Assembly (NCBI GenBank): GCA_949739095.1
Contig: CATIYX010000335.1
Location: 1 to 33,031 of the forward strand
Direction of reading: 5' to 3'
Length of the DNA stretch: 33,031 nucleotides
Origin: an uncultured Clostridia bacterium
GTDB taxonomy: Bacteria > Bacillota > Clostridia > RUG12999
Shown here piece after piece: positions 1-27,645 of the stretch; positions within the stretch are counted from its first letter, which is position 1; each line of letters begins with the position of its first letter. Below the pieces are notes generated by a model that saw nothing but the letters and a program-made list of their open reading frames with translations, made no database searches and was not told where the DNA came from. The position numbers were made by a program, and so were the translations under genes.

Positions 1-2738
1 CCGGCTGGAATGCAACGACTTCTGTGTTCACTGCACAGCTGAGCGGAACCGCAACAAATGTAGCGGTAACAATTGGCGGCAAAGCGGCAACGGTAGAAAC
101 AGCAAATGCGGACGGCAAAACGACTGTTACGGCATATCCTAGCGAGAAACTCGCATTGAATACGTTCTACCAAGTGAATGTTACGGCGGACGGCAAGAAT
201 GTCTATACCAAAGAAATTCAACTGATGGAACTGCTGAACGATAATTTTGACGGGTTCACCGAAAGTACAAGCGGAAATTTGAGAAATGTATATCCGGTGA
301 GCGATGGGAATTATTCCATTGTATACGGAACAGAAAACGGTAAACTGAGGATCGTCTATATTCCGGGAGGAGTGGTTGGTACAACGCGCAGCGATTTCAA
401 AACCACGCAGGCGGACTGGCAGGACTATACATTGGAATTGGACTACTCGGCGGATGAACAATATGTCAACGGAGCCAGAACGTATTATCCGGCACAGCAT
501 GTGCGTATTGGTATAGAAGTGCCGGCAAATACGGCGTTTGATAAAGCAACGGCAGGCAGCATTAACGCCGGCATTGATAATACGCTGCAAGTGAGCGGTG
601 CATCACTGGCAATTGACGGTGATAATACAGGAGTGAGAACCTTTACCGGCGGAACAAAAGTGGTAGCGGGTGCACAGAATAAAGAATTGACTGCAGCAAG
701 TGCAGTAACAGCGCCAATTAATCTGCAAATTGGTATCAAAGACGGAAATGTGTTGTCGCTGGCAAATGGTAAGGTTCTGGGTAATGCGGCACTTCCGGAA
801 GGGACGACAAGAGGCGGTGGATTTGTGCTGACCAGCCGCGGCGAAGGTGGAACCATGACGCACAGCTTGTATGACAACGTCAAAGTCTATAAGGCAGTGG
901 AAAAAGAACCGGCTAACACCTATGACATTTCTGATTGGAACGCGACCACCTCGGCGGCGTTTGTCACACTGAACGGCGTGGTTTCCGGCACCATCACGGC
1001 GGAGACTGCGGACAGAGAACTAAACGTTGAAAAGAAGATAAACGGCAACAAAACAGAACTGACCATTCTGCCGGGCGCGCCTTTTGAAATCGGACAGGAA
1101 TATTCGCTGAAAATTCTGGAAAACGGCGAAGAAGCAGCGGTACTGCCCTTCAAGCTGCTGCAAATGTTTGCGGACGATTTTGACAGCTATCAGACTGACA
1201 AAGAGATTCAGCAGGAATTTGTAGGCAGCACCTCCAGCGCGGTTGCTTACGCGAGAAACGGCAGGATGGGCGTATTCGGCGCTATGGACATGAGCAAAGT
1301 CTATCACAAGGATTTCACGGACGCGCAAAGGGATTGGCAGGACTATACAATGGAATTTGATTATATACCGAGCGCTTCTCAGAGGGGGCTGTTTGCCTAT
1401 ATGGAAGCGCATCCGGAAAAGATAGAGGCTTATAAAGATTTCAACGCCACCTCAGTGGGATTAGAGCCATTCCGTACGGCGAGTACGATGTCTGTAACCA
1501 TCAACGCAAACGGCGTACAGGCGATATGGGGCGGTGTTCTGAATGAAAAGACAGGCGCTTTAACGTATGGCTATACGAATATGGCGAATACAAAAACACA
1601 GGCGGAAGCACAGAATGTACAAATCAGCACCAAGGGAGACTACGGCTTTGTACTTGCCGACGCAAAAAACGGCGGCAAACTGATTCATACGCAGCAGCTT
1701 CCCAAAGATGCCCTGCGCGGCGGCGGCTTCGTATTCCTGGTACGCAACGATGAATATCTGATAGACAATCTAAAGATATATAAAGCAGTCACACCGCCCG
1801 AAAATCGCGACACGATGACGCTGGAAAGCGAAGAAATTACGGCACGGGAAGCTAATTTCACTTTCTCCGATGATGTCAGCGGTATGCAGGGCAGCAAGAT
1901 TGTATTGAACAAATATGAAGACGGCGAAATAAATCCTGTTAACTTTAGCGTGAAGGCTTCCGGAACACAGCTGCGTGTGGTTCCGCATACCGCCTTTGCA
2001 GACGGGTACTATTCCTTGAAGCTGGAAAGCGGCATTACCAGCCTGGATGACAGCAAGGCAACGGAAAGCGAAAGCACCCGTTTCTTCCGTGTCAGCGGCG
2101 GCAGCATATTGCCGGTAGCGAACTGGAGTTCTGAACCGGCATATGGCAGCAGCAAGCTGTTTAACGGTACCATCACAATGACGTTTGAACCGAGCGTTGA
2201 CGTTTCCACCATCACGGCAGACAGCGTTAAGGTATATAAAAACGGCGTGGCGGTCAGCGGCGCGACGGCTTCGGCAACGGAAAATACGGTTACGGTAAAT
2301 TTGAACGAACCGGTAGAGTTCGACACCAAATATGAAGTCCGGTTTACGAATAAAGCGAAATTTACGGAAAACTACGGGTTCCCCGAACTCATCTTCTTTG
2401 TGCCGAACGGATTGGATTTGTCCGATTTTAACGTCACGTTGCGCGACAATGTGATTCATCCGTCCACACCAATCGGCGGCGAGACCATTAGCATCGGCGC
2501 AACCATAACGTCAAACGAAAGTACAGAAAGCCGTTCGGCGGTCGTTACCTTCTGTGTGTTTGACGCCGACGGAAGAATGTGTAAAATCGGCGGGGAAGCG
2601 ATTACTGTTGCGGCGGGTGCAACCAAGGACGTTTACGCGAACATGGTGATTCCGGCAGGCAGCGGCTATACCATTAAATGCTTTGTTTGGGAATCATTTG
2701 AAAACCTGGTAGGTATCCATGAGGAGATATGGAGGTAA
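1..2738 (+). CDS. Secreted/surface multi-module protein with its 5' end outside the window: two tandem Ig-like + concanavalin/LamG-like beta-sandwich units, two SbsA/Big_5-like Ig domains, and a C-terminal beta-sandwich
   Basis: Frame 3 is open from nt 3. The GTG listed at 24 is not a real start: the first residues (GWNATTSVFTAQLSGT) mirror the internal SDWNATTSAAFVTLNGVVSGT at nt ~932, so the window cuts into a repeat unit. Repeated motifs are DNFDGF/DDFDSY, DWQDYTLELDY/DWQDYTMEFDY, RGGGFVL/RGGGFVF and YDNVKVYKAV/IDNLKIYKAV. Stop TAA at 2736-2738. Domain names are fold-level guesses from motif patterns. Confidence 0.85.
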   Translation, partial: GWNATTSVFTAQLSGTATNVAVTIGGKAATVETANADGKTTVTAYPSEKLALNTFYQVNVTADGKNVYTKEIQLMELLNDNFDGFTESTSGNLRNVYPVSDGNYSIVYGTENGKLRIVYIPGGVVGTTRSDFKTTQADWQDYTLELDYSADEQYVNGARTYYPAQHVRIGIEVPANTAFDKATAGSINAGIDNTLQVSGASLAIDGDNTGVRTFTGGTKVVAGAQNKELTAASAVTAPINLQIGIKDGNVLSLANGKVLGNAALPEGTTRGGGFVLTSRGEGGTMTHSLYDNVKVYKAVEKEPANTYDISDWNATTSAAFVTLNGVVSGTITAETADRELNVEKKINGNKTELTILPGAPFEIGQEYSLKILENGEEAAVLPFKLLQMFADDFDSYQTDKEIQQEFVGSTSSAVAYARNGRMGVFGAMDMSKVYHKDFTDAQRDWQDYTMEFDYIPSASQRGLFAYMEAHPEKIEAYKDFNATSVGLEPFRTASTMSVTINANGVQAIWGGVLNEKTGALTYGYTNMANTKTQAEAQNVQISTKGDYGFVLADAKNGGKLIHTQQLPKDALRGGGFVFLVRNDEYLIDNLKIYKAVTPPENRDTMTLESEEITAREANFTFSDDVSGMQGSKIVLNKYEDGEINPVNFSVKASGTQLRVVPHTAFADGYYSLKLESGITSLDDSKATESESTRFFRVSGGSILPVANWSSEPAYGSSKLFNGTITMTFEPSVDVSTITADSVKVYKNGVAVSGATASATENTVTVNLNEPVEFDTKYEVRFTNKAKFTENYGFPELIFFVPNGLDLSDFNVTLRDNVIHPSTPIGGETISIGATITSNESTESRSAVVTFCVFDADGRMCKIGGEAITVAAGATKDVYANMVIPAGSGYTIKCFVWESFENLVGIHEEIWR
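3..1805 (+). repeat. Intragenic tandem duplication: two ~930-nt (~310-aa) units, each an Ig-like module followed by a LamG-like module
   Basis: Unit 1 spans nt 3 to ~931 and unit 2 spans nt ~932 to ~1805. The colinear protein motifs are listed under the CDS. The repeat is conserved at protein level only; the DNA has clearly diverged. Confidence 0.7.
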
Positions 2739-2743
2739 AGCCT

Positions 2744-5700
2744 GTGTATAAAAGAATTATAAGTTTATTGCTTTTGGCTGCTCTCCTGACTTTACCGCTG
2801 CCGCTCCATGCGGCGGCGGAGTCGGCACAGGTCGATGTGCAGGTGGCTGTACAAGAGAATTCCATTCATCTTTCCGGGAACCTGAATGCAGCGCCGGAGA
2901 ATGAATTTGTCACAGTGCAGCTGCTGTCGGGTGGCAGCAAGGCGGAGACAGCGACGAGCGCCGAACAGGATATCCTCCATTTCGGCGTGTGCAAGGCGAA
3001 CGGGAGCGGCGCGTTTTCCTATGAATTCAGTGTTTCGTCTCTCAGCGGCAGTGAATATCTTTATGTAAAATGCGGCAGCAAGGAGTATTTTGCGCCGCTG
3101 GTGGAGAAAAAAACAACCGTGCAGCTTTATGTTGCGCCGGACGGCAATGATTCTGCCGCCGGCACACAGGATGCGCCGCTGAAAACCATGGACGGTGCAA
3201 GAAAAGCGGCGGCTAAATTAGACAAATCCGCGAACCGGGTGGAAGTCATCTTTGCGGAAGGTGAATATTTTCAGCAAGGCACAGTCCAGTTCACAGGCAC
3301 TGATTCCGGCGGCAAGGATACACCGGTCACCTATAAAGCGGCGGAAGGCGCAAAAGTGGTGTTTACCGTCTCTAAAAAGCTGGATGCTGCAAATTTGGAA
3401 ACAGTTACGGACGCGGACACATTGCTGCGGCTGCCGGAATCGGCAAGAGGAAAAGTGTTGCAACTTGACCTCAAACAAAGCGGCATCACGCCGGCGGACG
3501 TGGATTTATATTCCAGAACCAATAATTTACTCAACGAAAGAGGATTATTGCTGAACGGCAAACCACAGAGAATCGCACGTTATCCCAATACCGGATTTTT
3601 GCGGGTCGGCTCGCTTTTGAAAACAAATGTGGTAGCGGAAGGAAGCAGTACCGAGCCGTGTGTGTTCACATGGGATAATGACAGAATTTCGCGCTGGACG
3701 ACGGCGGGCAGTTTTTGGATAGAGGGATATTTTGCGGACGAGTACCGCGCGGACACTGCAAAGGATTGCAGCGTGGATGCGGCGAAAAAGCAAATCACCA
3801 TGAACGGTTCCGACAGAGGAATCGGTTATAAAACACGTTGGCGCGCCATTAACCTTTTGGAGGAACTTGATATTCCGGGCGAATGGTATGTGGATAAAAA
3901 CACAATGACATTGTACTACTATCCACCGTACTATTTTGACAAGACAAGTGACGAGCTTCGTTTCACCGTGAACAGCAACGGCGCAAGTATTGACATGATG
4001 ATTGTGCTGAACGGCACAAACAATATTTGCTTTGAGGGACTGGAATTCCGCGACAAATACTATGGCGATGTCATTCGCTCTACCAATAAGGTGGACGGAA
4101 TTTCTGTTAAAAATTGCAGCTTTGTGAACACAGCGACAGCCATTAATCTGGATGGGAAAAATCTCACCGTGGATGGATGTGATTTCCACAATCTGCAAGG
4201 AAACGCGGTGCAGTTGTCAGACCAAGATGCGATTAACACACTCACCCCATCGAACATTGCTGTCACAAACAATTATATCTACAATACCGACCTTGGGTCT
4301 GCACCTGTCCTTGTGGGCGGTGTTGGGACGCGGGTGGCAAACAATCTGATTCACCGCACGGACGACGGCGGACTGTTGCTGGGCAGCATAGACCGGCGGT
4401 GGAGAATCGCCGAATGCACAGCGGAGAACAACGAAATCTATAACGGTTTGCGTGAAAAAGGCGACATGGGAATGGTCTATATGGGACGTTCCTGGTATTC
4501 GCCGGGTGTATCGGTCAGCCGTAACTATATTCATGATTTCGGTATCCATGAGAATTTGAGTTGGTTCGATAATCCCACCTATGGTATTTTTGCAGACGAT
4601 ACACACAGCAACGCAAGTTTTACCAGCAATATCATCAACGCAAACAACAAAGATAAGACCTATGGCATTGTGTTGGGCGGCGGCAGCAATCTTGACGTGG
4701 AGGGCAACACCATTATCCATACAACACGCGGCGCCGACCTCAACGACAGAACAAATACAGGGAATATCACAACCTACGGCGCGTATACCGCGATGCTTGC
4801 GGCATATAATGACGGACTAAAATACGACCAAACCCCGTGGCTGACAAAATATCCGCAAGTGAATAAAATCATGACGGACATTACAGCGGACGGCAAACAC
4901 ATTCCCAAAAACGAAAAACTGGTCGGCAACCTGTTTTTTGATAATAGCAAAGCATTCAATATTGCAACGAGAAACAAAAACTACGGACAAGAATCGGGAA
5001 ATGTGACCGCATCGAGTGATTCTGTTTTTGTGAATGCAGCGAAAAATGACTGGCGTGTGACCGCAGCGGCAAAATCGGCACAGGGAATTGGCGCGGGAGT
5101 GCTTGATGAAAGCTTCGATATGTCCTCCATCGGACTTATCAGAAAACTTTCCATGACCTATGAACCGGTTCGGCTGCAATATCCTTTGCAGGAAGATTAC
5201 CCGGATGCGTCCGCACTCACACTTGCGTGGGAGGATGCGGCGCCGGCGGATGAATACTACTATGAAATCGCAACAGATGAAGCGTTTGGGAATGTGGTAA
5301 AATCCGGCACGGTATATGAAAATGTCGCTGATGTTTCGGGGCTGACGAAGGACAGCGTATATTATTGGCGCGTGACAGCGCGGAATCTCTCCAAGGACTA
5401 CGGCAAAAGCTGGCAGAGCGAGACAGGCATGTTCCATACAGCGAAAAATGTTATGAAGGTGCAAAGTTTTCAGGAAAATGCGGCAGGGAAAGCAGAACTG
5501 ACATATACCATTGACGGAGCCGCAACCGATGTGCAAAACGCGAGTGTTCTCGTTGCCGTGAAGTCGGCGGATAAAGTGATTGACGCGCAGGTGTTCAACG
5601 ACCCCGTCACAGGCGGCACACAAAATACGTTTACAAAACAGCTTGATATTGCCATAAAACCGGAGTATACCGTGGAATGCTTCGCCTTATCAAGCGTTCA

Positions 5701-5749
5701 GGAGTTATTTCCGATTGATATGAAGAAACAGCTAATTTTAAAGAGGTGA
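2744..5749 (+). CDS. Secreted right-handed parallel beta-helix protein (pectate-lyase fold; candidate glycoside hydrolase or polysaccharide lyase), paralogue A
   Basis: GTG 2744 lies 8 nt after GGAGG (2731-2735). The track's ATG 2729 is only 2 nt from GAGGAG, so 2744 is preferred, though 2729 remains possible. Signal peptide: YKRIISLLLLAALLTLPLPLHAAAE. The N-cap LYVAPDGNDSAAGTQDAPLKTMDGA is followed by PbH1-like coils (NCSFVN, VTNNYIYN, VANNLIHR, ENNEIYN, SRNYIHD, TSNIINA, EGNTIIH). An Fn3-like YYWRV module sits at nt ~5215-5385, followed by a C-terminal Ig-like sandwich. Confidence 0.9.
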   Translation: MYKRIISLLLLAALLTLPLPLHAAAESAQVDVQVAVQENSIHLSGNLNAAPENEFVTVQLLSGGSKAETATSAEQDILHFGVCKANGSGAFSYEFSVSSLSGSEYLYVKCGSKEYFAPLVEKKTTVQLYVAPDGNDSAAGTQDAPLKTMDGARKAAAKLDKSANRVEVIFAEGEYFQQGTVQFTGTDSGGKDTPVTYKAAEGAKVVFTVSKKLDAANLETVTDADTLLRLPESARGKVLQLDLKQSGITPADVDLYSRTNNLLNERGLLLNGKPQRIARYPNTGFLRVGSLLKTNVVAEGSSTEPCVFTWDNDRISRWTTAGSFWIEGYFADEYRADTAKDCSVDAAKKQITMNGSDRGIGYKTRWRAINLLEELDIPGEWYVDKNTMTLYYYPPYYFDKTSDELRFTVNSNGASIDMMIVLNGTNNICFEGLEFRDKYYGDVIRSTNKVDGISVKNCSFVNTATAINLDGKNLTVDGCDFHNLQGNAVQLSDQDAINTLTPSNIAVTNNYIYNTDLGSAPVLVGGVGTRVANNLIHRTDDGGLLLGSIDRRWRIAECTAENNEIYNGLREKGDMGMVYMGRSWYSPGVSVSRNYIHDFGIHENLSWFDNPTYGIFADDTHSNASFTSNIINANNKDKTYGIVLGGGSNLDVEGNTIIHTTRGADLNDRTNTGNITTYGAYTAMLAAYNDGLKYDQTPWLTKYPQVNKIMTDITADGKHIPKNEKLVGNLFFDNSKAFNIATRNKNYGQESGNVTASSDSVFVNAAKNDWRVTAAAKSAQGIGAGVLDESFDMSSIGLIRKLSMTYEPVRLQYPLQEDYPDASALTLAWEDAAPADEYYYEIATDEAFGNVVKSGTVYENVADVSGLTKDSVYYWRVTARNLSKDYGKSWQSETGMFHTAKNVMKVQSFQENAAGKAELTYTIDGAATDVQNASVLVAVKSADKVIDAQVFNDPVTGGTQNTFTKQLDIAIKPEYTVECFALSSVQELFPIDMKKQLILKR

Positions 5750-5756
5750 GGCAAAT

Positions 5757-11607: not shown

Positions 11608-11625
11608 AGGCGGGAGGTAGCCAGA

Positions 11626-14502
11626 ATGAAAAAAAGAATTATCATTGCATTGATGTTATGTTCTCTTTTGGCAGGGCTGATACCTGTTGTTCAGGCGGCG
11701 GAACAGCCGGAGCGTTACTCGGCATTTGAGGTTGTTTCCGGTATCGGGCTGATGGAGAGCACAGAGGAAGAAGAGACGGTCACGCGTGCGCGATTTGCTG
11801 CCGTTTTATATGACATTGTTTGCTATGGGCAGACAACCCAAGAAGTGAAAAGTATTTTTGGAGACCGCTATCAAGATGCGGAATTTGTGGGTGAAATGGA
11901 AGAAAACGCCACGTATGAAGATATACCTGCAAGCTATGAATACTATGAAAAAGTAAACTTTATAAGCTCTATCGGCTTGATGAAAGGCGTTGGCGGAAAC
12001 CGCTTTGAGCCGGAGGAAACAATACAGATTGAACATATTTATAAAGTGCTTGTCCGTCTTTTGGGCTATGAACAAAAAGCGCTGCAAAACGGCAATGGCA
12101 TTACGGGATATCTTGCCGTGGCAAATGAACTGAAACTCATGCGGGGCGTTCCAAGCAATGCAGTGATGGACGGCAAAACATTTGCCCAAATTATATATAA
12201 TGCGCTGGACGTTCCGATTGCGCGGCAAACCACCATTGGCACGCAAATGACAGAATATACAACAGTGAAAAACGAAACGTTGCTAACCGAAGTGATGGGT
12301 CTGGACAAAGTCACCGGCATTATCACGGAAAACGGCAGAACCAATTTTATGGCAGAAAGCAGGATTGGAAAAAATTCGATTAAAATCGGCGAACAAATTT
12401 ACAACCTGCCTTCCGCTTGTGATTATATCAGCGAATATATCGGAAGATATGTTGACCTCTATTACGTGAAAGAAGGAAAAGAGAACGAATTTGATGTTCT
12501 TTGGGCGGGTATTGCGAAAAAAGACGATACAGAGATTTTTGACATAAGAGATTTTATCAGCTTAGACAGCGGCGTAATTCGCTATGAAAAAGATGGCAGA
12601 ATCCAGACGAAACGAATTGCAAACGGCGCGTATATCATCTATAACGGCTTAGCGGTCACAGCGCTCACACAGGAACTGTTCCAGCATGACAGCGGAGACG
12701 TTATCATGGTTTCGCTGGACGGCACAGACACAAATTTGGTGATTATCAATGGCTACAGAGGCGGCGTGGTAGATGGCGTTGAAACTACGGAAGGCGCGAT
12801 TTACGATTCGGTCGGCAAAGGAAGCGCTGACAAATATAATATTAAAACGCCGTTGGAAGAGATTGGAAAAAAGGTGAGAATTTACGACACAAATGGTAAA
12901 TCGATTGCTCTTTCAGGTGTTTCGGCAGGAATGCTGATGGATATTTCAGAAAACGGAGATGTGAAAAAGATTATCGCCTATACCGGTCGGGATGAGAATA
13001 TCACCGTAGCTTCGCTTGCAGAGGACGGAGACCAGACGCAGATTATCACCGGTGACGGCACGACCTATAACGTAGCGAAGAGTTTCGAAAATTCCAGTAA
13101 TTTTAACGTTTCTTTGGGCAAGACCTACAGCGCAAAAATCAACCGACATGGCGAAATTGCGTTCCTCGGTCAGCCGAATGCCGGAAGCTGGAGCGTTGGA
13201 TATTTGAAGGAAACCAGAAAAGCCAGCGGTGTGGGCGTTGAAGTAGGTATGAGAATGTTCCAGATGAACGGTAAGTTCGAGACATTTGCCTGTGCCGACA
13301 GCGGGGTAACCGTTTATAACACAGACGGTACTGAAAAGAAAATCAAAAGCGGCAGTGAACTGTATAGCACAATTTCGGGCTACAGCGGACTTTGCAGATA
13401 CCGGACAAACGATGAAGGCAAAGTTACGGCACTTGAACTGCCGCTGCAACTGGGCGACCCAAGCACACAGAATGACCGGCTGCGCGTGCTCTATGACACC
13501 AAGGTGGGAGGCACAGTCAGATCACCGGGAGGAGACGCCGGATTTGATGGAAAGGCGTTTTGGAGATCGGGTTATTCCAGAATCATTTATGCGCCGGACG
13601 AAGCGGAAAATGAAGATGACTTTGCAGTGCTGGACCGGAGACCGGAAACATCCAGCGAAGGTGGGAAACCGTTTATTGCATATTCGCTCAATCCAAACAC
13701 CCTTTTGTGCGATTATTATGTGTTCCCGGGGACAAATACCTTAGAGGGCGCTATTACAACTAGCGGTCCGATGATTGTCACTAATGTGACTACTACATCA
13801 GACGCGAATGGAGACCGCGTGCAAAAGGTGAAGGGAATGCGTTGGAACAAAGGGGAAGAGACGATTTATTTTTCAAATGACCCCGATATTTTTGATAAAC
13901 TGAACAATCCGGTAGGAAGTGCGGCGCAGACGAGTCCCAAAGTGGGCGACATTATTATGACCGAGCTGAACAACAACAATATTGTGCAGCGTGCTAATAT
14001 TCTGTATAAAGCGGACGCGGTGAACCCGCTGTCGACCAAAAACCAAAAAGGATGGCTCTATGGCTCTACAGGAATACTGGAACGTACGGAGGCAGGTGTG
14101 CCGGTTGCGGACGGGTCAGTGCAAAATCCCTATACCATTGCGGAAAATACGGGAGATTTGCAGCAAGGCGCGGATAACTCGTATCATGCCCCAGACAGAA
14201 GAAGATTTGTCTATGGATGGATTTATGACTATGCCGACGGCATACTCACTATCACAACGCAAAACCTTGCTGAAGAGGAATATGATCCGAACAGCAGTAT
14301 TTATATTACAGAGGGTCAAGTATTCAAAGATCGTATGATGTACGCACATTATGAAGACGGAAAGGTTGAAACCAAAAAGAATGCGTCCCTTACGGACATC
14401 AAGACATATAAGAATTTCGGAACGGATTGCAGTAGACTCTTTACAGCGACCTATTACGGAGAAAATACCTGGGGCGTTATTTTGGACGGCTATTTTGAAT
14501 AA
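11626..14502 (+). CDS. Secreted 958-aa protein with degenerate N-terminal SLH-like repeats and a ~750-aa region of unknown function
   Basis: ATG 11626 lies 8 nt after GGGAGG (11612-11617). Signal peptide: MKKRIIIALMLCSLLAGLIPVVQA/AE. SLH-like segments at nt ~11713-12215 include YEDIPASYEYYEKVNFISSIGLMKGVGGNRFEPEETIQIEHIYKVLVRLLGY. I recognise no motif in the remainder. Confidence 0.88.
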   Translation: MKKRIIIALMLCSLLAGLIPVVQAAEQPERYSAFEVVSGIGLMESTEEEETVTRARFAAVLYDIVCYGQTTQEVKSIFGDRYQDAEFVGEMEENATYEDIPASYEYYEKVNFISSIGLMKGVGGNRFEPEETIQIEHIYKVLVRLLGYEQKALQNGNGITGYLAVANELKLMRGVPSNAVMDGKTFAQIIYNALDVPIARQTTIGTQMTEYTTVKNETLLTEVMGLDKVTGIITENGRTNFMAESRIGKNSIKIGEQIYNLPSACDYISEYIGRYVDLYYVKEGKENEFDVLWAGIAKKDDTEIFDIRDFISLDSGVIRYEKDGRIQTKRIANGAYIIYNGLAVTALTQELFQHDSGDVIMVSLDGTDTNLVIINGYRGGVVDGVETTEGAIYDSVGKGSADKYNIKTPLEEIGKKVRIYDTNGKSIALSGVSAGMLMDISENGDVKKIIAYTGRDENITVASLAEDGDQTQIITGDGTTYNVAKSFENSSNFNVSLGKTYSAKINRHGEIAFLGQPNAGSWSVGYLKETRKASGVGVEVGMRMFQMNGKFETFACADSGVTVYNTDGTEKKIKSGSELYSTISGYSGLCRYRTNDEGKVTALELPLQLGDPSTQNDRLRVLYDTKVGGTVRSPGGDAGFDGKAFWRSGYSRIIYAPDEAENEDDFAVLDRRPETSSEGGKPFIAYSLNPNTLLCDYYVFPGTNTLEGAITTSGPMIVTNVTTTSDANGDRVQKVKGMRWNKGEETIYFSNDPDIFDKLNNPVGSAAQTSPKVGDIIMTELNNNNIVQRANILYKADAVNPLSTKNQKGWLYGSTGILERTEAGVPVADGSVQNPYTIAENTGDLQQGADNSYHAPDRRRFVYGWIYDYADGILTITTQNLAEEEYDPNSSIYITEGQVFKDRMMYAHYEDGKVETKKNASLTDIKTYKNFGTDCSRLFTATYYGENTWGVILDGYFE

Positions 14503-14536
14503 TATTTGACCTGCATGGAGCAGATGAAATGTATCA

Positions 14537-14569
14537 AAGGGGCGGGGTCTACCCTGCCCCTTCTTTTCT
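14537..14569 (+). terminator. Rho-independent terminator candidate
   Basis: AAGGGGCGGGG (14537-14547), loop TCTA, CCCTGCCCCTT (14552-14562). The stem is 11 bp with one G-U pair and is followed by CTTTTCT. Confidence 0.7.
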
Positions 14570-14629
14570 GCCCGGCAGGGCGGTGCACGGAGGTTCGGCA
14601 GGTATCAGACGGACAAATGTGCATGGGAG

Positions 14630-16336
14630 ATGAAAAGAGGGAAAAGTTTGTGGTTTGGCACAGAGAAAGGAATGGTGGTTGCAGTGGATAGGTTAAAGGA
14701 TTTATCACTGCGGGAAAAAATCGGGCAGACCTATATTTTGGAGGAATCCATTTATTCCGACTTGCAGGATAAAGAAGCATTTTTTGAGAAATATCAGCCC
14801 GGCGGTATCTGGTTTGGTTCCGGTGAACCGACCACATGTGCAGGGATGCGGGCATATGCGGACAGTATCAATGCCCGACTGAAAGTACCGGCGCTGTTTT
14901 GCGGCGATGCGGAAACGGGATTGGGGCGGTCAAAGATTGCAGAGCCGTCCTATCTGCCGTGTGCGGCAGCGCTGGGAAACACAGCATCTGAAGAGCTTTC
15001 CTATGAATTCGGTGCAATCAATGCGAACGAAGCAAGCGCGGCAGGATACAACTGGATTTGGGGACCGGTGGTGGATTTGCCGTGCGACAGCGTCTCCAAG
15101 CTGCGGGAACTTTCGGACTATCCGGAAATGATTAGCAAAATGGCGGTTGCCCAGCATCAAGGTATGTTATCAGAGCATGTGGCGGCATGTGCAAAACATT
15201 TCCCGGGAACGGACGGCATTGAGTACCGAAACAGCCATTTTTGTCAGTCCTCGGTTTCTACGTCTCTTGCAGAGTGGAAGGAAAAACAGGGCAAGATATT
15301 TCAGGATATGATACAGGCGGGCGTACCTTCTATTATGACGTCGCACAGGGGATTTCCGGCAGTGGACGACAGACGTGTGGGGCACGGATATATGCCGACA
15401 ACGCTGTCCTATGCGGTCATTACAGAGCTGCTGAAAGGGGAAATGGGCTTTGGCGGCGTTGTCGTGACGGACGACTTGTTCATGCGCGGTATCAAGAATG
15501 TATACGACAGGGAGAAGTTGTATATTGAGGTGGTCAACGCAGGAAATGACATGATATTGGGAACACGTTCTACGGATTATATCGACATTATTGAAGCTGC
15601 GGTGCGGCGCGGGGAGATTATGGAAAGCCGCATTGATGATGCGTGCAGCAGAGTGCTTGCCATGAAAGAGCGGCTGGGGTTGTTCCAAACGCAAAATAAA
15701 ACGTGGGAGGAAGAGCAGTTTGCCGGACGTTCGCATCGGTTTAGAGAAAAAGTTGCCGAACAGTCTTTGCACCTTGTCTGTGACGAAACCAAAAAGCTTC
15801 CGTTTGACCCCCAAAAGATAAAAAAAGCGGCAATAGTGTGCTTTTCGACCGGAGAAGCTTTCTACGGCGCGCTTTCCCACATGAAAGACGCGCTGGGCAA
15901 ATATGATATTGAGACGCATATCCAGCATAACTTCCCCACCGGGAATATCGTAAACTTCGGCGTACCCATTGATTTTGGCGAGGGGAAAAGCGAGACACAG
16001 GGAAAGGCATATTCCTGCAAAGAATTGGACGAACAATTCGATTTGATTATTTATGCGCTCTTTTCCGGCGGCGGACGCCCCAGCTTCTACGGCGGAGAGG
16101 AAAGCGGATTTTTCGATGTGATGACTTATGGTAAGGAAAAAAGCGTGGTGGTGTCCTTTGGAACGCCGCAGGTATATTTCGACTGGTTTTCCGATTCCGA
16201 CATTTTTTTCAATGCATATGACTATCTGCCGGAAATGCAGGAAAATTTTGTGAAAGCGTTATTCGGAGAGACAAAACCGATGGCAGAATCGCAGTTCAGA
16301 CTGGTACCGCTGGAATTTACGGTGGGAACGAAGTAA
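14630..16336 (+). CDS. Glycoside hydrolase family 3 (NagZ/beta-hexosaminidase-like or beta-glucosidase-like), two-domain, no signal peptide
   Basis: KHFPGTDG (nt 15194-) and GFGGVVVTDDLFMRG (nucleophile Asp region, nt ~15450-15495) match the GH3 N-terminal domain hallmarks. LSLREKIGQ lies near the N-terminus. The start is uncertain: ATG 14630 has a poorly spaced RBS, and in-frame alternatives are TTG 14648 (GAGGG 7 nt upstream) and GTG 14684. Confidence 0.85.
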   Translation: MKRGKSLWFGTEKGMVVAVDRLKDLSLREKIGQTYILEESIYSDLQDKEAFFEKYQPGGIWFGSGEPTTCAGMRAYADSINARLKVPALFCGDAETGLGRSKIAEPSYLPCAAALGNTASEELSYEFGAINANEASAAGYNWIWGPVVDLPCDSVSKLRELSDYPEMISKMAVAQHQGMLSEHVAACAKHFPGTDGIEYRNSHFCQSSVSTSLAEWKEKQGKIFQDMIQAGVPSIMTSHRGFPAVDDRRVGHGYMPTTLSYAVITELLKGEMGFGGVVVTDDLFMRGIKNVYDREKLYIEVVNAGNDMILGTRSTDYIDIIEAAVRRGEIMESRIDDACSRVLAMKERLGLFQTQNKTWEEEQFAGRSHRFREKVAEQSLHLVCDETKKLPFDPQKIKKAAIVCFSTGEAFYGALSHMKDALGKYDIETHIQHNFPTGNIVNFGVPIDFGEGKSETQGKAYSCKELDEQFDLIIYALFSGGGRPSFYGGEESGFFDVMTYGKEKSVVVSFGTPQVYFDWFSDSDIFFNAYDYLPEMQENFVKALFGETKPMAESQFRLVPLEFTVGTK

Positions 16337-16360
16337 CTTTATAGCAAGGAGAAGAACGTT

Positions 16361-18415
16361 ATGAGGGAAGAAATGAGTCATCGAGAATTTTTTAAATTGG
16401 TTAATATCTACAGCGCGGGTCTGGAAAAAGTGCGCGAAAGTGTGGAACAGGAGGATTATGACGAAGCATTTTTCCGTTACAGAGCATATTTGGAGAAGCG
16501 TTTTACTTCTTTCAAAAAAGCGCCCTCGCATCATGGCACCTCAGACGCAGAGGAGGTGAAGCGTCTGGCGGATTTCATGCTGGACGACAAGCTTTCGTTG
16601 CTGGGATATGAACCGGTGCAGCTGCCGACTCCTATAGATTGGCTATACTATCCGTTTGACGACAACCAGTGGCAGAGTCATTTGTGTTATTTGGAATGGA
16701 CACGAAACTTGGTGGACACCTGGCAAAACACAGGCGACGGCCGTTATTTAAATAAGTGGTGTCAGTTCGTGGAGGACTTTTTGGACCATCACCCGTGGGG
16801 AGCAAAAGGGCTGGAATATCACACGTCGCGTCCCATGTATCTTGCGGAATATAAATATAAATGCGGCGGCGAAGGACAAATGCCGGGATATCTTGTCGGG
16901 TCATGGATTGGTCTGGCAGCGTCCATTCGCACCTCGGTGCTGCTTGCGGCGCTGCAAGACATCATTGGAGAAAAGGAACTGTCTGACAGACTGCTGAAAA
17001 AGATTATCGTTTCGCTTGCAACCGACCATGTGGATGTGATGATCAACAATGCGCGGCGGTATACGCCAAACCAGCTCTTTGACGGCGCGACCGCGTTGCT
17101 GCGTTTTTCTATCTGTTTCTGTGAGCTGCGGGCGGCACCTGCCGCTTACCTCGTGGGGATGGATCGCATGGAAGAAGCGTTTCGCAGAAACATTCTGCCG
17201 GACGGTACGGACATTGAACAATCCTTCAACTATAACAGTTATATGCCATTTTGGTTTAATGAGGTCTATTCTTTGTACGGCGAGCAGACAACGGTGCGCA
17301 TAGAAAAGCTGAAGGAGCGCGTGATAAAACGCTGCGCCTTTTTGACGGCTATGATGGAGTTTGACAATACATGGCCGGCGGTGGCGAAAACACACAGTGA
17401 GGATGTCACCGGATTGATTGCGGATTATGAAGCGTTGTACGATATCAAACTGCAGGGAAGGTTTTGCGAGACGATGTTCTTTCCGTATGGCGGCTACTAT
17501 GTCTTTAAAAATGAGACGGACAAAAGATATTTGCTGTTTAAGACCAGCCGCAAGGCGATTGGTCATGCACATGAGGACTGCAATTCCATCATGCTGAGTG
17601 CGTTTGGAGAGAAAATATTGGTTGACGCCGGAAACTATAACTATTCAAACGATGCACAAAGCCTTGTAATCAACCGGTACCATATATCTACGGCGGCGCA
17701 CAACAGCTTGTCAGTGGACGGCTATTCGCAAAACCGCATTCCGTTTGCCGTGAACGATCCGCAGGTTTTGGAGGAAATCGGGAAAACGCCCATGGAGGGC
17801 TGCGGCAAAAACGAGGGCGTGGAATATGCGAAAGGCGAATATTGCGATGATTACGGCGATGCACTTTTGGGTGTGCTGAAAGGAATGCCGGTGGAGCGCT
17901 TCGAGGAAAATCATATTCATGTGCACCACGAAAGAGAAGTGATTCACCTGAAAGAGCCGGGCGTGTTTGTGGTGGTGGATACCGTTAAAGACAGAGAGGA
18001 TAAACCGCACACCTATACGCTTTCCTGGAATTTGAACTATACCTATCAGCCTGAGAGCGTTTCGTTCGGCGAAAACAGCATTTCCGTTTCCCGGAGTGGA
18101 CTGCCGGGGCTTTTGATACAAACCATTGCGGAAAAGCCGATAGAATATCACATGACCTACGGACAAGACGAGCCGTATTCCGGTTGGATGGCAACGGGCT
18201 ACGGAAAATTGGCAAAATGCGTCCACATAGAACAAAGCCTGAAAGGTTCGGGGGAAGAACAGCTTTATACGCTCGTGTATCCCTATCAAGAAAATAAACT
18301 GTGCTCCGCCGAAAAAAGCGCGGAGGGCATAAACATTCTCACCACAGACGGTACGCGTTATATGGTAAGCAAAACGGAAAGCGGCTGGCAGGTGGAGAAG
18401 GAAACGGAACAATAA
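16361..18415 (+). CDS. Heparinase II/III-like polysaccharide/oligosaccharide lyase (alpha/alpha toroid + beta-sandwich; PL12/15/17/21-type architecture), no signal peptide
   Basis: ATG 16361 lies 8 nt after AAGGAGAA. The signature region FFPYGGYYVF...GHAHEDCNSIMLSAFGEKILVDAGNYNYSND...STAAHNSLSVDGYSQ (nt ~17476-17730) fits the Hepar_II_III pattern 'gHgHaD.ls..l...g..l.vD.G...Y....s.aHNt..vdg'. Confidence 0.85.
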   Translation: MREEMSHREFFKLVNIYSAGLEKVRESVEQEDYDEAFFRYRAYLEKRFTSFKKAPSHHGTSDAEEVKRLADFMLDDKLSLLGYEPVQLPTPIDWLYYPFDDNQWQSHLCYLEWTRNLVDTWQNTGDGRYLNKWCQFVEDFLDHHPWGAKGLEYHTSRPMYLAEYKYKCGGEGQMPGYLVGSWIGLAASIRTSVLLAALQDIIGEKELSDRLLKKIIVSLATDHVDVMINNARRYTPNQLFDGATALLRFSICFCELRAAPAAYLVGMDRMEEAFRRNILPDGTDIEQSFNYNSYMPFWFNEVYSLYGEQTTVRIEKLKERVIKRCAFLTAMMEFDNTWPAVAKTHSEDVTGLIADYEALYDIKLQGRFCETMFFPYGGYYVFKNETDKRYLLFKTSRKAIGHAHEDCNSIMLSAFGEKILVDAGNYNYSNDAQSLVINRYHISTAAHNSLSVDGYSQNRIPFAVNDPQVLEEIGKTPMEGCGKNEGVEYAKGEYCDDYGDALLGVLKGMPVERFEENHIHVHHEREVIHLKEPGVFVVVDTVKDREDKPHTYTLSWNLNYTYQPESVSFGENSISVSRSGLPGLLIQTIAEKPIEYHMTYGQDEPYSGWMATGYGKLAKCVHIEQSLKGSGEEQLYTLVYPYQENKLCSAEKSAEGINILTTDGTRYMVSKTESGWQVEKETEQ

Positions 18416-18438
18416 ACTGTCATGAGGAGGAAAAGGGT

Positions 18439-19653
18439 TTGGAGGAAGTATTACAAACAGTCATGCAAAAAATAAAAAACAATATGGCTGAGATTGGAAC
18501 GGATTTGCGGGAGTTTCCGGGGACGCATGACGGAATGTATTTCAGAAATCGGGAACGTTGTATTGAGATTGAACATATTTTTAACTGGACGCAGAGTTTT
18601 TTTACAGGGATGGCGTACTGGAGCTATTTATATGATAAGGACAGCAGGACAATAGATTGGATGAAACAATTTTTGGATAGATATGAGGCAAAGGTGCTGA
18701 AAACTCCAATGGAAACCATGCATGATACCGGTTTTTTATACAGCCTGTATGCAGTTGCATTGTATCAGCTGACGGGAGAAGAACGTGTGAAAAAAATCGG
18801 GCTTTCGGCGGCGGATGCGCTGGCGAACCGCTTTGTATCAAAGGGCGGATATATCCGCGCATGGGGACGCATGGACGATACCATTCCGGCTTATGTATCT
18901 CCCGAACTTGCCAAAGACCACTTTTTCACGGAGAGCCGGGGGCTTGCGATTGTGGACTGCATGATGAATCTGCCGCTGTTGTTTTGGGCGGCGGAAGCAG
19001 GAGGAGACGCACGTTATGCGGAGATAGCAAAGGCACATGCGGATATGACGCTGCAATATTTTGTCAGAGAAGATGATTCGGTTTGCCACGCATACCGTTT
19101 TGACGAGGACGGAACGCCGCTGGGTGAGGAGAACTACTGCGGCTTTTCCAAGGGATCGCGCTGGGCGCGCGGCACGGCGTGGGCGATATATGGCTATGCC
19201 ATTTGCTACAGCTATACGAAAGAGAAACGCTATCTGGACGCCAGCGAACGGCTTGCCACGTTTTTTTGCAAACATTTGCAGGGTGACGGCGCTGTCCTGT
19301 GGGATTTTTCACTGCCGCCGGAAACGCCGGCGATTCCCAGCGGCAAGCATCAGGAGTGGATGACGTGGGATATCACGGATAAGAAAAATGAGAGCCATGT
19401 TGTGGATACGTCTGCCTCTGCTGTTGTACTGTGCGGCATACAGGAAATTCTGCGCCACAGGGAAAACGCGTTTTTGGAAAAAAGCGCAAAGCAGATTTTG
19501 ACGGGACTGACAGAAAACTACCTGTGTCTTGACAAGGACGTGAACGGTATTTTGAAATGCCAAAACGGCAACGAAACCATGACGCCCTACGGAGATTATT
19601 TTATAGTGGAAGCCATGATGAATGCCTTCGGGGACTATGGACGTATCTGGTAG
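18439..19653 (+). CDS. Glycoside hydrolase family 88 (unsaturated glucuronyl hydrolase-like), no signal peptide
   Basis: HDTGFLY, RGTAWAIYGYA, VLWDF and DTSASAVVLCGIQEI match GH88/GH105 hallmarks. TTG 18439 lies 8 nt after GAGGAGG (18424-18430), and ATG 18463 is an alternative. The track's start at 18301 would overlap the lyase gene by 115 nt and was rejected. Confidence 0.85.
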   Translation: MEEVLQTVMQKIKNNMAEIGTDLREFPGTHDGMYFRNRERCIEIEHIFNWTQSFFTGMAYWSYLYDKDSRTIDWMKQFLDRYEAKVLKTPMETMHDTGFLYSLYAVALYQLTGEERVKKIGLSAADALANRFVSKGGYIRAWGRMDDTIPAYVSPELAKDHFFTESRGLAIVDCMMNLPLLFWAAEAGGDARYAEIAKAHADMTLQYFVREDDSVCHAYRFDEDGTPLGEENYCGFSKGSRWARGTAWAIYGYAICYSYTKEKRYLDASERLATFFCKHLQGDGAVLWDFSLPPETPAIPSGKHQEWMTWDITDKKNESHVVDTSASAVVLCGIQEILRHRENAFLEKSAKQILTGLTENYLCLDKDVNGILKCQNGNETMTPYGDYFIVEAMMNAFGDYGRIW

Positions 19654-19701
19654 GAAGCGATAAAGTCTTGTTGGATGATAAGGGCGGCAATAAATCCGCA
19701 T

Positions 19702-19745
19702 AGAAATAGGCGTTTCAAGCAAAGGTGCCTGAAACGCCTATTTCT
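19702..19745 (+). terminator. Hairpin terminator candidate after the GH88 gene
   Basis: Perfect 16-bp inverted repeat AGAAATAGGCGTTTCA (19702-19717) / TGAAACGCCTATTTCT (19730-19745) with a 12-nt loop. The only T-rich stretch lies within and just after the 3' arm. Confidence 0.6.
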
Positions 19746-19793
19746 ATCTATAAGGAATTTTATGCATTCACCGGTGATGCCGTCCATACCGTC

Positions 19794-19822
19794 TTGACAG
19801 AAAATCGCCCTTATGTTACACT
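19794..19822 (+). promoter_or_regulatory. Sigma-A-type promoter candidate for the DUF4234/SHOCT gene
   Basis: TTGACA (19794-19799), a 17-nt spacer ending in TGt, then TACACT (19817-19822). It lies ~69 nt upstream of ATG 19891. Confidence 0.45.
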
Positions 19823-19890
19823 ATGAAGAGAAGTCTGTTTATCCTATGTTGGGATAGATAGGAAAAAGTACATAGTAAAGGGGAAGAAAC

Positions 19891-21021: not shown

Positions 21022-21030
21022 ATACCATGT

Positions 21031-21062
21031 CAGGGGCGGGAAAATTTCCGTCCCTGTTTTTT
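21031..21062 (+). terminator. Rho-independent terminator
   Basis: CAGGGGCGGGA (21031-21041), loop AAAT, TTCCGTCCCTG (21046-21056). The stem is 11 bp with 2 G-U pairs and is followed by TTTTTT (21057-21062). Confidence 0.75.
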
Positions 21063-21168
21063 AAGATAACCCGCCAAACCCAACACACGTCGCGGCGTGT
21101 GTTGGAGAAAATCGTGTTTCTTCAAAATGACAGTGCGTAAAATCAAATATAAACAGGAGCGAAAATAT

Positions 21169-21687: not shown

Positions 21688-21714
21688 AAAGAAATGTGGA
21701 AGAGGTGAATATAC

Positions 21715-24799: not shown

Positions 24800-24824
24800 T
24801 ACAATCACCCCTATCTTTTAGAAA

Positions 24825-26378: not shown

Positions 26379-26434
26379 TGGCGTACCTCCATTTTTTCTG
26401 ATTCCCCTTTACACACGAGGGGAAGTATGTCTTT

Positions 26435-27626: not shown

Positions 27627-27645
27627 AAGAAAGGAGGTTGTTACA

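Follow-up and report, generated by a model that had tools for sequence, protein, structure and literature searches.

A putative polysaccharide-utilization gene cluster pairing secreted GH141-like beta-helix proteins with a cytoplasmic PL12-like lyase, GH88, and GH3 in an uncultured Clostridia bacterium

The window, that is, the whole stretch of 33,031 nucleotides that was analyzed, comes from an uncultured Clostridia bacterium, and its ORF listing contained eight long co-directional ORFs (g1 to g8) occupying 3..19653 of the + strand. These genes and the two associated hairpins are as follows:

g1, 3..2738, + strand: surface protein with the 5′ end missing at the window edge; 911 aa visible, 933-939 aa in orthologues
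g2, 2729..5749, + strand: 1006 aa; GH141-like right-handed beta-helix (aa ~131-800) with fn3/Ig-like C-terminal modules
g3, 5757..9929, + strand: 1390 aa; GH141-like beta-helix (aa ~31-720), then fn3, ~450 aa without assignment, and Cu_amine_oxidN1 (aa 1262-1358)
g4, 9919..11607, + strand: 562 aa from ATG 9919; signal peptide and three C-terminal SLH repeats
g5, 11626..14502, + strand: 958 aa; signal peptide and divergent N-terminal SLH-fold anchor (aa ~30-195)
Hairpin in the g5–g6 gap, 14537..14572, + strand: 11 bp, 8 GC, T-rich tail
g6, 14630..16336, + strand: GH3; 568 aa from ATG 14630 or 554 aa from ATG 14672
g7, 16361..18415, + strand: 684 aa; PL12-like (heparinase III-like) lyase with a predicted triad of Asn237, Tyr291, and His402
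g8, 18439..19653, + strand: 404 aa; GH88 unsaturated glucuronyl hydrolase (Pfam GH88), predicted to be cytoplasmic
Hairpin after g8, 19700..19747, + strand: 22-nt arms

With the most likely starts, the intergenic gaps from g1 to g8 were -10, +7, -11, +18, +127, +24, and +23 nt. These figures take ATG 9919 as the start of g4 (an alternative in-frame TTG lies at 9904) and TTG 18439, 9 nt after GGAGG, as the proposed start of g8, the orthologue of which is also 404 aa long. The ORFs and gaps thus bore out the preliminary description of eight co-directional, tightly packed genes with a single long gap of 127 nt, and a terminator-like hairpin with a T-run lay in the gap to which a terminator had been assigned. 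The search for the same gene order elsewhere, which that description had proposed, found g1 to g8 orthologues in this order in three other, related assemblies (59-89% protein identity), indicating that the ORFs are not chance. These three assemblies are of close relatives, and their synteny alone is weak evidence. Sequence prediction gave typical Sec signal peptides for g2 to g5 and none for g6 to g8. The proposed division into five secreted and three cytoplasmic proteins therefore stood except for g1, of which ~38 residues lie beyond the left window edge, so that its signal peptide falls outside the sequence and is present only in the orthologues P0165 and P0166.

The beta-helix proteins g2 and g3 are paralogs, as had been proposed, with 40% identity over 777 aa in a pairwise alignment, and g2 matched Pfam Beta_helix (7.7e-19). 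GH141_M scored 17-19 bits on g2/g3, under the Pfam cut-off of 27. The g2/g3 family profile matched PDB 9RX2 at E 4e-91 and the GH141 enzyme BT_1002 (5MQP) at E 3e-45, and the GH141 catalytic Asp pair was invariant in 77/77 aligned family members; the predicted catalytic residues are Asp579 and Asp623 in g2 and Asp472 and Asp516 in g3. Judged by sequence, g2 and g3 are distant GH141 relatives within a large uncharacterized family that includes 9RX2, contrary to the earlier view that the secreted proteins belonged to no nameable family. They share the right-handed beta-helix with the GH141 enzymes (BT_1002 alpha-L-fucosidase, Xyn141E xylanase, and Wf141 endo-fucanases), and the NLLEE-x-D-x-PGEWY insertion motif of GH141 is found in the g2/g3 family together with both aligned catalytic aspartates. 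This likeness is at the profile level only, however, g2/g3 being far nearer to the uncharacterized 9RX2 group; the accessory modules differ, and the genomic partners here are PL12-like and GH88 enzymes. 9RX2 itself ("Parallel beta-helix repeat protein", 717 aa, lipoprotein-type signal peptide), for which a literature search returned no paper or function, matched the g2/g3 profile over its full length but consists of one domain and lacks the additional N- and C-terminal modules of g2 and g3. The C-terminal Cu_amine_oxidN1 of g3 probably confers association with the cell surface.

Since g2 and g3 fall into a GH141-like family and conserve the catalytic Asp pair, the extracellular step is predicted to be hydrolytic, and hydrolysis is probably the extracellular chemistry. 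Conversely, they might be beta-helix polysaccharide lyases, like PL1/3/6/9, with the extracellular step also a beta-elimination. The family profile gave weak matches (E 3e-10 to 1e-5) to PL6 alginate lyase, chondroitinase B, and PL9-type rhamnogalacturonan lyase, precomputed Pfam "Pel9A-like_beta_helix" matches exist on relatives, and the downstream GH88 requires unsaturated ends. However, most of the PL matches covered the N-terminal cap alone, whereas the far stronger GH141 and 9RX2 matches span the catalytic region; the two invariant aspartates are those essential in BT_1002; and the cytoplasmic PL12-like enzyme is able to provide the unsaturated ends for GH88. We regard secreted lyases as very unlikely.

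The label "LamG-like" for g1 found no counterpart in Pfam, where Big_5 was the sole match, and held at the fold level: Foldseek searches with the AF2 model (pLDDT 67) matched BT3469 ConA-like, laminin LG4-5, and BoNT Hc structures, each with prob 1.0 and low TM. The model supports, at the level of fold, a secreted multi-domain beta-sandwich protein comprising LamG/ConA-like jelly rolls, a Big_5 Ig-like domain, and a C-terminal sandwich, which probably binds glycans. As to the two SLH proteins proposed, g4 had a clear Pfam SLH match (1.5e-37) in 3 stretches, which by sequence constitute a cell-wall anchor, and ~370 aa without assignment lie between its signal peptide and these repeats. No Pfam match at all, SLH included, was obtained for g5; its predicted SLH-fold anchor is based on weak BLAST similarity to g4 and on the match of its AF2 model (pLDDT 64; mostly 75-90 for aa 30-600) to SpaA-SLH 7SV4 (Foldseek prob 1.0, TMt 0.65). 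The same model has small beta-barrel domains in series at aa ~195-605, followed by a C-terminal third that was not modellable. A search of 1.84 billion representatives yielded only 23 hits for g1, of which 4 had E-values below 1e-30. For g5, only 11 homologues were found, the distant ones bearing Pfam SLH; by these searches, both proteins are near-orphans.

Pfam searches upheld the GH3, heparinase II/III-like, and GH88 assignments of the last three genes. The g6 protein, the orthologues of which are called at 550 aa, matched Glyco_hydro_3 (GH3_N; 6.7e-51), and its best PDB matches were Bacillus subtilis NagZ/YbbD (1e-39) and the GH3 phosphorylase BglX 5VQD (3e-38). Its motif KHFPGTDGIEYRNSH retains the His acid/base and VVTDD the nucleophile, and from its sequence g6 is a cytoplasmic GH3 of the NagZ/phosphorylase subgroup. 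For g7, which matched Hepar_II_III_N+C, the family profile aligned over its full length with HepIII 5JMD/4MMH (~1e-49), and other PL families reached no better than 1e-5. The Asn/Tyr/His triad, mapped by means of PMC12088678, was invariant in 24 homologues. The pairwise match of g7 to PL12 was modest (E 4e-13; 59 bits against a 700-bit HepC cut-off), and both g6 and g7 were far under the NCBIfam equivalog cut-offs; g7 thus appears to be a distant, cytoplasmic PL12 relative and a predicted polysaccharide lyase. The g8 protein matched Bacillus GL1 UGL 1VD5 (1e-43) and keeps both catalytic residues, Asp88 and Asp149.

The hairpin and T-run between g5 and g6 (14537-14562; folding z-score -3.8) were kept in two relatives, L006 and L001, with substitutions that preserve the stem. 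This hairpin is probably a partial terminator or a 3′-end stabilizer setting the ratio of surface to cytoplasmic transcripts. Since a conserved terminator-like hairpin separates g1–g5 from g6–g8, the two sets may not be co-regulated. The locus could accordingly consist of two adjacent, functionally separate units: a surface operon, g1–g5, ending at the hairpin and encoding S-layer-associated or adhesive proteins with two beta-helix enzymes, and an independent cytoplasmic operon, g6–g8, finishing unsaturated or acidic oligosaccharides imported by another route. The position of a stable, conserved hairpin in the only long gap fits such a division, as do the close relationship of the fully syntenic relatives and the finding that, among the lyase-homologue neighborhoods examined, this was the only clade with GH88 next to the lyase. 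However, sequence inspection revealed no promoter-like site between the hairpin and g6, and lyases only 24-45% identical still adjoin the beta-helix family or g4/g5-like proteins, which would be unexpected if the neighborhood were accidental. We consider two separate units unlikely. The hairpin 3′ of g8 marks where the conserved block stops on the right, and in L001 other genes follow GH88 than here.

The neighborhoods of relatives gave two added supports for a polysaccharide-utilization locus (PUL). First, in L008, the surface genes of the orthologous locus are immediately preceded, at a distance of 70 nt, by co-oriented genes for an ABC importer (two permeases and a solute-binding protein, SBP) and an AraC-type regulator. 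The lyase homologue of P. koleovorans likewise has permease, SBP, and AraC-type genes as neighbors; the SBP is a lipoprotein in both. Those ABC genes that the window does contain, to the right of the cluster, were only 33-39% identical to the ones adjacent in L008 and probably serve another unit. Second, the lyase family co-occurs independently, in distant lineages, with the beta-helix family and with g4/g5-like SLH proteins. The lyase gene abuts a same-family beta-helix gene in a gut clade at 45% identity and in a Spirochaete MAG, and is close to one in Lentisphaerae MAGs. Two Oscillospiraceae/Clostridia MAGs carry genes like g4 and g5 next to a lyase that is secreted and keeps its catalytic motifs, and the lyase homologues in L035 and L042 have g4-like proteins as neighbors. 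Close relatives also have a GalA/GalB-like GH2.

Several lyase homologues instead have a cytoplasmic beta-helix partner and are surrounded by housekeeping genes, a setting that does not resemble foraging. They fit the idea that the locus remodels or recycles the cell's own envelope polymer (a secondary cell-wall, teichuronic-acid-like, capsule, or spore polysaccharide) without external foraging. Such homologues and partners in gut Clostridia lie among housekeeping and sporulation genes, and wall-association modules occur in three of the five secreted proteins (SLH in g4 and g5, Cu_amine_oxidN1 in g3). NagZ-type GH3 enzymes have a known role in cell-wall recycling, and g6 matched B. subtilis NagZ best. 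Conversely, the importer, lipoprotein SBP, and AraC-type regulator adjacent in L008 and P. koleovorans form the usual signature of a nutrient locus, g1 carries LamG/ConA-like binding modules, and no polysaccharide synthesis genes were found in the whole window. We give envelope recycling a low probability.

Within 1-19653, we found no transporter or regulator gene, so that this interval alone lies outside the definition of a PUL. We judge it slightly more probable than the reverse that it represents the portion of a Gram-positive PUL that encodes enzymes and surface proteins in an uncultured, spore-forming, gut-type Clostridia bacterium, directed at a glycan with 4-linked glucuronate-type residues. 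The polymer would be held at the cell surface by g1 and the wall-anchored g4 and g5, and hydrolyzed to oligosaccharides by g2 and g3. The fragments may be taken up by an ABC importer like that of the orthologous locus, the corresponding position of which falls here beyond the left window edge. In the cytoplasm, g7 would perform beta-elimination at the uronate, g8 would take off the 4,5-unsaturated uronate, and g6 would take off beta-linked GlcNAc or Glc via hydrolysis or phosphorolysis. The g5–g6 hairpin probably reduces transcription of the cytoplasmic relative to the surface genes, short of full uncoupling. Together, the PL12/GH88 pairing and the lack of sulfatases suggest an unsulfated heteroglycan that contains GlcA and is either heparosan-/hyaluronan-like or an acidic polysaccharide of bacterial or plant origin. 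The earlier proposal, in which surface proteins feed a cytoplasmic lyase/GH88/GH3 trio, thus gained support from the importer, the regulator, and lyase co-occurrence and remains the best explanation overall. A literature search found no publication describing this locus, and so neither an account of it as a PUL with a known substrate nor expression data separating the two gene sets came to light.

The locus plausibly belongs to a well-known class of systems, apparently made of distant uncharacterized relatives of known families. Gellan and xanthan are degraded by Bacillus sp. GL1 with an extracellular depolymerase, followed by intracellular UGL (GH88) and exo-glycosidases, the lyase step being extracellular. 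That Gram-positive system finishes imported acidic oligosaccharides with GH88 and beta-glycosidases, as proposed here, and its UGL is the enzyme most similar to g8; in the present locus, however, the only recognizable lyase is predicted to be cytoplasmic, the extracellular enzymes are hydrolase-like, and rhamnosidase and mannosidase are absent. Gram-positive PULs (gpPULs), defined in the review PMC9067506, which cites Sheridan et al. 2016, place secreted or wall-anchored enzymes and binders beside cytoplasmic finishing enzymes, as here; no glycosaminoglycan (GAG) gpPUL of gut Firmicutes is characterized according to this review. Predicted GAG loci of this kind share with the present one the lyase and GH88 uronate route, and their ABC importer and AraC-type regulator are matched in L008. 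They differ in using extracellular PL8 lyases where GH141-like hydrolases are predicted here with an intracellular lyase, and the present interval has no transporter or regulator and includes two near-orphan surface proteins. The heparin/heparan sulfate (HS) PUL of Bacteroides thetaiotaomicron (BT4652-75) also pairs Asn/Tyr/His-triad PL12-type lyases (BT4657/BT4662) with GH88 (BT4658). In contrast to that PUL, our locus lacks sulfatases, PL13, PL15, and SusC/D, its lyase is only distantly PL12 and predicted to be cytoplasmic, and it encodes GH3 and GH141-like enzymes that the HS pathway does not need.

The eight genes of the locus (g1–g8) were recovered as long ORFs between positions 3 and 19653, all on the plus strand, as the preliminary description had stated:

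3–2738 (+): g1, surface protein
2729–5749 (+): g2, secreted beta-helix protein
5757–9929 (+): g3, secreted beta-helix protein
9919–11607 (+): g4, SLH protein
11626–14502 (+): g5, surface protein
14630–16336 (+): g6, GH3 protein
16361–18415 (+): g7, predicted lyase
18439–19653 (+): g8, GH88 protein

Using the most plausible starts (ATG 9919 for g4 and TTG 18439, behind GGAGG, for g8), the intergenic distances from g1 to g8 were −10, +7, −11, +18, +127, +24, and +23 nt, reproducing the reported tight spacing of −11 to +24 nt with a single 127-nt gap. Typical export signals, consisting of a basic n-region, a hydrophobic core, and an AxA-type site, were found in g2–g5, and none was found in g6–g8, as expected for the three genes described as lacking signal peptides. 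The reading frame of g1 is open from base 3, past the left edge of the window, and its orthologues of 933–939 aa indicate that about 38 N-terminal residues, including the signal peptide, are missing. Of the five signal peptides initially proposed, those of g2–g5 were thus seen and that of g1 lies outside the window; the overall description was accurate apart from this point.

The 127-nt gap between g5 and g6 does contain a terminator-like element, a hairpin whose 11-bp stem includes 8 GC pairs, with a T-rich tail (14537–14562). The gap folds much more stably than shuffled sequence (z = −3.8), and the hairpin is kept in relatives (proteins 59–89% identical) despite substitutions in the stem and loop. 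An Rfam scan of the whole window yielded no match, and hence no riboswitch or leader to account for the gap. A search for a promoter-like site after the hairpin found none, and a hairpin without such a site following it suggests that g6–g8 may be reached by attenuated read-through rather than transcribed independently. The same hairpin is what would speak for two unrelated adjacent operons, a reading that we regard as unlikely in view of the co-occurrences in distant lineages presented below. A second hairpin, with 22-nt arms, follows g8 (19700–19747).

In the cytoplasmic trio, g7 matched Pfam Hepar_II_III_N and Hepar_II_III_C, each above the cut-off, corresponding to an (alpha/alpha) toroid plus antiparallel beta-sandwich architecture. 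Only 33 homologues were detectable in a search of 5.8 billion proteins. A profile built from 24 g7-family sequences (A1) matched PL12 heparinase III structures over the full length (E ~1e-49; residues 15–650 of 5JMD), and matched PL39, PL15, PL35, and PL17 with E values of 1e-5 to 4e-3, placing the family nearer PL12 than these toroid lyases. The catalytic Tyr294 and His424 and the neutralising Asn240 of Pedobacter HepIII (PMC12088678) aligned with Y291, H402, and N237 of g7 (chain index +24), and all three were invariant across the 24 homologues. Possessing both Pfam domains and the full PL12 catalytic set, g7 is a predicted PL12-like lyase, in keeping with the heparinase II/III-like lyase recognised earlier; we use this label without assigning a specificity because its score against the NCBIfam HepC equivalog (59.5 bits) is far below the cut-off of 700.

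The other two members of the trio also bore out their first identification. The g8 product scored 56.9 bits against Pfam GH88 (cut-off 26.6) and matched the Bacillus GL1 unsaturated glucuronyl hydrolase (1VD5) at 1e-43, with conservation of both catalytic Asp residues (Asp88 and Asp149) and the RGxAW motif. The g6 product matched the Pfam GH3 N-terminal domain at 6.7e-51, and its closest structures were Bacillus subtilis NagZ and the GH3 phosphorylase BglX (5VQD). The nucleophile Asp is kept (GVVVTDD in g6, aligned with GVIVTDA, containing D318, in B. subtilis NagZ). At the Asp-His dyad of NagZ (KHFPGHG...D-S/T-H), g6 retains the His acid/base and has Asn in place of Asp (RNSH), making this motif as near to that of BglX (RDQH) as to that of NagZ. 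Its score against the NagZ equivalog NF003740 was 91 bits, with a cut-off of 207. These features leave three candidate activities for g6: beta-N-acetylglucosaminidase, beta-glucosidase, and phosphorylase.

We then compared the two secreted beta-helix proteins with known families. Described as paralogues, g2 (1006 aa) and g3 (1390 aa) were indeed 40% identical over 777 residues, and both matched the generic Pfam Beta_helix. The only other Pfam match shared by the two was GH141_M, at 18.6 bits for g2 and 16.6 bits for g3, below the curated cut-off of 27 and restricted to the C-terminal motif of that domain; the C-terminus of g3 is a Cu_amine_oxidN1 domain. A database search found 257 homologues, none of them named, which come from Clostridia, Planctomycetota, Verrucomicrobiota, Lentisphaerota, and further phyla. 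A Spirochaete relative (L020) passed the GH141_M threshold with 33.6 bits. Searches of PDB sequences matched the GH141 enzyme BT_1002 (5MQP; pairwise E 3e-10 with g3) and the unannotated 9RX2, deposited as a parallel beta-helix repeat protein. With a profile of 77 family sequences (A2), the match to 9RX2 extended over the full length (E 4e-91) and that to BT_1002 reached E 3e-45. BT_1002 requires Asp residues D523 and D564 (PMC12786026), and these aligned with D472/D516 in g3 and D579/D623 in g2, a pair that is invariant in all 77 family members. The same profile matched PL6- and PL9-type lyases weakly, which would be the argument for g2 and g3 being beta-helix lyases; the match to GH141 is far stronger and the Asp pair is invariant, which makes this very unlikely. 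We conclude that g2 and g3 are predicted GH141-like glycoside hydrolases, a label chosen in place of formal GH141 membership because GH141_M stays below its cut-off. The earlier statement that the secreted proteins belong to no family nameable by eye is accordingly superseded for these two. Our literature search found neither a publication on 9RX2 nor a description of a 9RX2-type family.

The remaining surface proteins were characterised by domain searches and AlphaFold2 models, the usable parts of which exclude the C-terminal third of g5 and residues 600–700 of g1. The SLH assignment was secured for g4 by three C-terminal repeats (PF00395, 1.5e-37) and for g5 at the fold level only. No Pfam match was obtained for g5, and only 11 homologues were found, the distant ones carrying PF00395. 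In its model (mean pLDDT 64; residues 30–600 mostly 75–90), the N-terminal domain resembles the SpaA SLH trimer (probability 1.0, TMt 0.55–0.65) and is followed by tandem small beta-barrels. We rejected g4 and g5 as paralogues; they have only the SLH region in common, weakly. For g1, only 23 matches were found among 1.84 billion representative proteins, and the model (pLDDT 67) contains beta-sandwiches similar to ConA/LamG-type modules (BT3469, laminin LG4-5, and the botulinum Hc domain), so that the LamG-like label is upheld at the fold level. BLASTP of g1 against itself and against g2–g5 (E 1e-3) revealed no repeats and no common modules, and cross-orthologue tblastn gave a hint of internal duplication. 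An NCBIfam scan gave no match for g1, g2, g3, g5, and g8, and for g4 a match in the SLH region only (49 bits, cut-off 1275).

The nearest relatives of the host are uncultured Clostridia MAGs with 78–89% identity; the lyase is 86% identical to the copy on CAMNSU010000020. Spore genes beside the orthologous locus mark a spore-former. When we looked for the same gene order elsewhere, as had been advised, g1–g8 were preserved in order in three assemblies. In the 78% relative (L008), two ABC permeases, a lipoprotein SBP (an ABC-importer component), and a g1 paralogue lie 5′ of the locus on the same strand, and just beyond this importer come a GH2 gene and, divergently oriented, the gene of an AraC-type response regulator. 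The second permease there is called as two ORFs (L008:2571–3453; 124 and 153 aa), possibly reflecting a frameshift or assembly error. A GH2 gene absent from the window is found between the GH3 and lyase genes in the 86–89% relatives; it resembles GalA/GalB beta-galactosidase, not beta-glucuronidase:

L006:16427–18787: inserted GH2
L007:15478–17838: inserted GH2
L010 ~7570–10000: inserted GH2
L008:1–144 (opposite strand): GH2 of the 78% relative, upstream of the locus

More distant lineages also bring these gene families together. In six assemblies, mostly gut metagenomes, a gene for a 45%-identical lyase abuts one for a 599-aa member of the g2/g3 family (E 4e-25) lacking a signal peptide. Lyase and beta-helix families lie within 10 kb of each other in several Lentisphaerae MAGs, and in a Spirochaetes MAG (L020:4180–15790) a lyase homologue and a GH141-like protein occur with a sulfatase and sugar-acid enzymes, which suggests a possible sulfated-glycan context for the pair. 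Two Oscillospiraceae/Clostridia MAGs encode a secreted 1322-aa form of the lyase, with genes for g4-like and g5-like SLH proteins and for an SBP upstream of it. This form keeps the TPNQ, EQSFNYN, and GH motifs and has extra F5/8-type-C, Ig, and Cu_amine_oxidN1 modules; here the lyase apparently acts outside the cell. The Paenibacillus koleovorans lyase homologue adjoins ABC permeases, an SBP, and an AraC-type regulator. The main arrangements were as follows:

L003:10001–13791 (also L004, L005, L011–L013): 45% lyase with the 599-aa beta-helix gene directly after it, gut Clostridia MAGs
L035:2237–13533: secreted lyase with SLH neighbours
L042:2–8284: secreted lyase with SLH neighbours

These independent associations in distant lineages link the cytoplasmic lyase, as far as gene neighbourhoods indicate, to both kinds of surface component.

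Several neighbourhoods had further features. Housekeeping genes surround the L003-type pair, which is wholly cytoplasmic, and an MBL-fold hydrolase and a class IV aminotransferase are encoded after it. L020 also encodes a zinc alcohol dehydrogenase, a xylose-isomerase-like TIM barrel, an aldo/keto reductase, and an aldehyde dehydrogenase. Five consecutive large ORFs (220–785 aa) stand beside the lyase homologue, the ABC genes, and the AraC-type gene of P. koleovorans NBRC 103111 (L053:1–9347); none of the five had a precomputed Pfam family, and a fresh Pfam scan of three was also empty. In L054:10001–13617, a 38% lyase homologue precedes a 488-aa protein, with tRNA synthetase and sporulation genes as neighbours; this protein had no match in Pfam or NCBIfam, and its sequence suggests a beta-helix enzyme of another kind (pectin-lyase fold).

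The best-supported model for g1–g8, and in our judgement a moderately probable one, is a pathway of the Gram-positive polysaccharide utilisation locus (gpPUL) type. Glycan-degrading enzymes, of which such a locus needs at least one, are predicted for g2, g3, g6, g7, and g8, and the model builds on the domain identities, catalytic-residue conservation, presence or absence of export signals, and synteny that we observed. The order in which the proteins act is inferred, as are glycan binding, import, and the nature of the substrate. In this scheme, g1, g4, and g5 would capture the polymer at the cell wall, and g2 and g3 would hydrolyse it extracellularly. Fragments would then enter through an ABC importer and undergo cytoplasmic beta-elimination by g7, after which g8 would take off the unsaturated uronate and g6 would trim the remainder from the end, with GH2 also involved in the relatives. 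An improbable alternative is that the locus turns over a polymer of the bacterium's own wall or capsule. The wall anchors on the surface proteins, the NagZ-like GH3, and the pairs of homologues found among housekeeping genes would agree with this; the importer, regulator, and binding modules argue against it.

For the gpPUL-type pathway, the pairing of g7 and g8 mirrors that of PL12 and GH88 in the Bacteroides heparan sulfate PUL. Unlike that PUL, the locus has no sulfatases and has a beta-specific GH3, which makes an unsulfated GlcA-containing heteroglycan the more likely substrate. Heparosan breakdown needs no beta-GlcNAc-ase, and hyaluronan-like polymers would fit the set of GH3, lyase, and GH88. 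The GH2 of the relatives, however, has the look of a GalA/GalB beta-galactosidase and not of a beta-glucuronidase, and we made no substrate assignment from the enzyme set.

The locus is thus of a known kind, the gpPUL, with an undescribed combination of GH141-like hydrolases outside, a PL12-like lyase inside, and two near-orphan surface proteins. Our literature search found no description of the g1–g8 locus and no publication combining GH141 with PL12 and GH88. Much less is understood about the glycan loci of Clostridia, gut and environmental, than about their Bacteroides counterparts. For gut Firmicutes, no GAG-type gpPUL has been characterised, according to a review (PMC9067506). The evidence requires no new principle, and the locus is a reasonable target for enzymology. 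It opens a large uncharacterised GH141-related beta-helix family with one solved structure (9RX2), a rare clade of PL12-like lyases, a genomic association of lyase and beta-helix genes that recurs, and two near-orphan surface proteins. On a bolder and rather less probable reading, the PL12-like lyase and the 9RX2/GH141-like enzyme would work as a pair conserved across Clostridia, Spirochaetes, and Lentisphaerae, in some cases entirely within the cytoplasm, on a class of uronate glycan without a known degradation pathway. If so, g2 and g3 would have a novel glycoside hydrolase specificity and might even constitute a family of their own next to GH141, and g1 and g5 would be new families of surface glycan-binding proteins in Gram-positive bacteria. 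Finding the substrate would give a function to all these families and establish a division of labour, with hydrolysis outside and beta-elimination inside; if it proved to be a common acidic glycan, the locus would be a routine new PUL.

Finally, we considered the rest of the window in relation to the import step. Positions 1–19653 contain no transport genes, and the region left of g1 lies outside the window. ABC genes are present at 24825–30132, and an AraC-type gene (22511–24808, minus strand) lies 3 kb downstream of g8, an AraC-type response regulator being also the neighbour of the L008 locus. These ABC genes and the importer abutting that locus are not orthologues. We rejected the 22.5–30 kb ABC/AraC cluster as the cognate transporter because of its identity of only 33–39% to the L008 importer, and treated it as a separate unit. 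The region from 22511 is apparently a second, separate gpPUL-like unit:

19794–22395: three small membrane-protein genes (DUF4234+SHOCT, YgjV-like, and DUF6198), between the two carbohydrate units
22511–33031: second unit, with a 765-aa AraC-type gene (−), an SBP (−), two ABC permeases, a second SBP, and a GDSL/SGNH esterase

The esterase is secreted, has four F5/8-type-C modules and a Pro/Thr-rich linker, and continues past the right edge of the window. The three small membrane-protein genes are missing downstream of GH88 in the relative L001; in the window, they are preceded by a sigma-70-like promoter with a TG extension (19794–19822).
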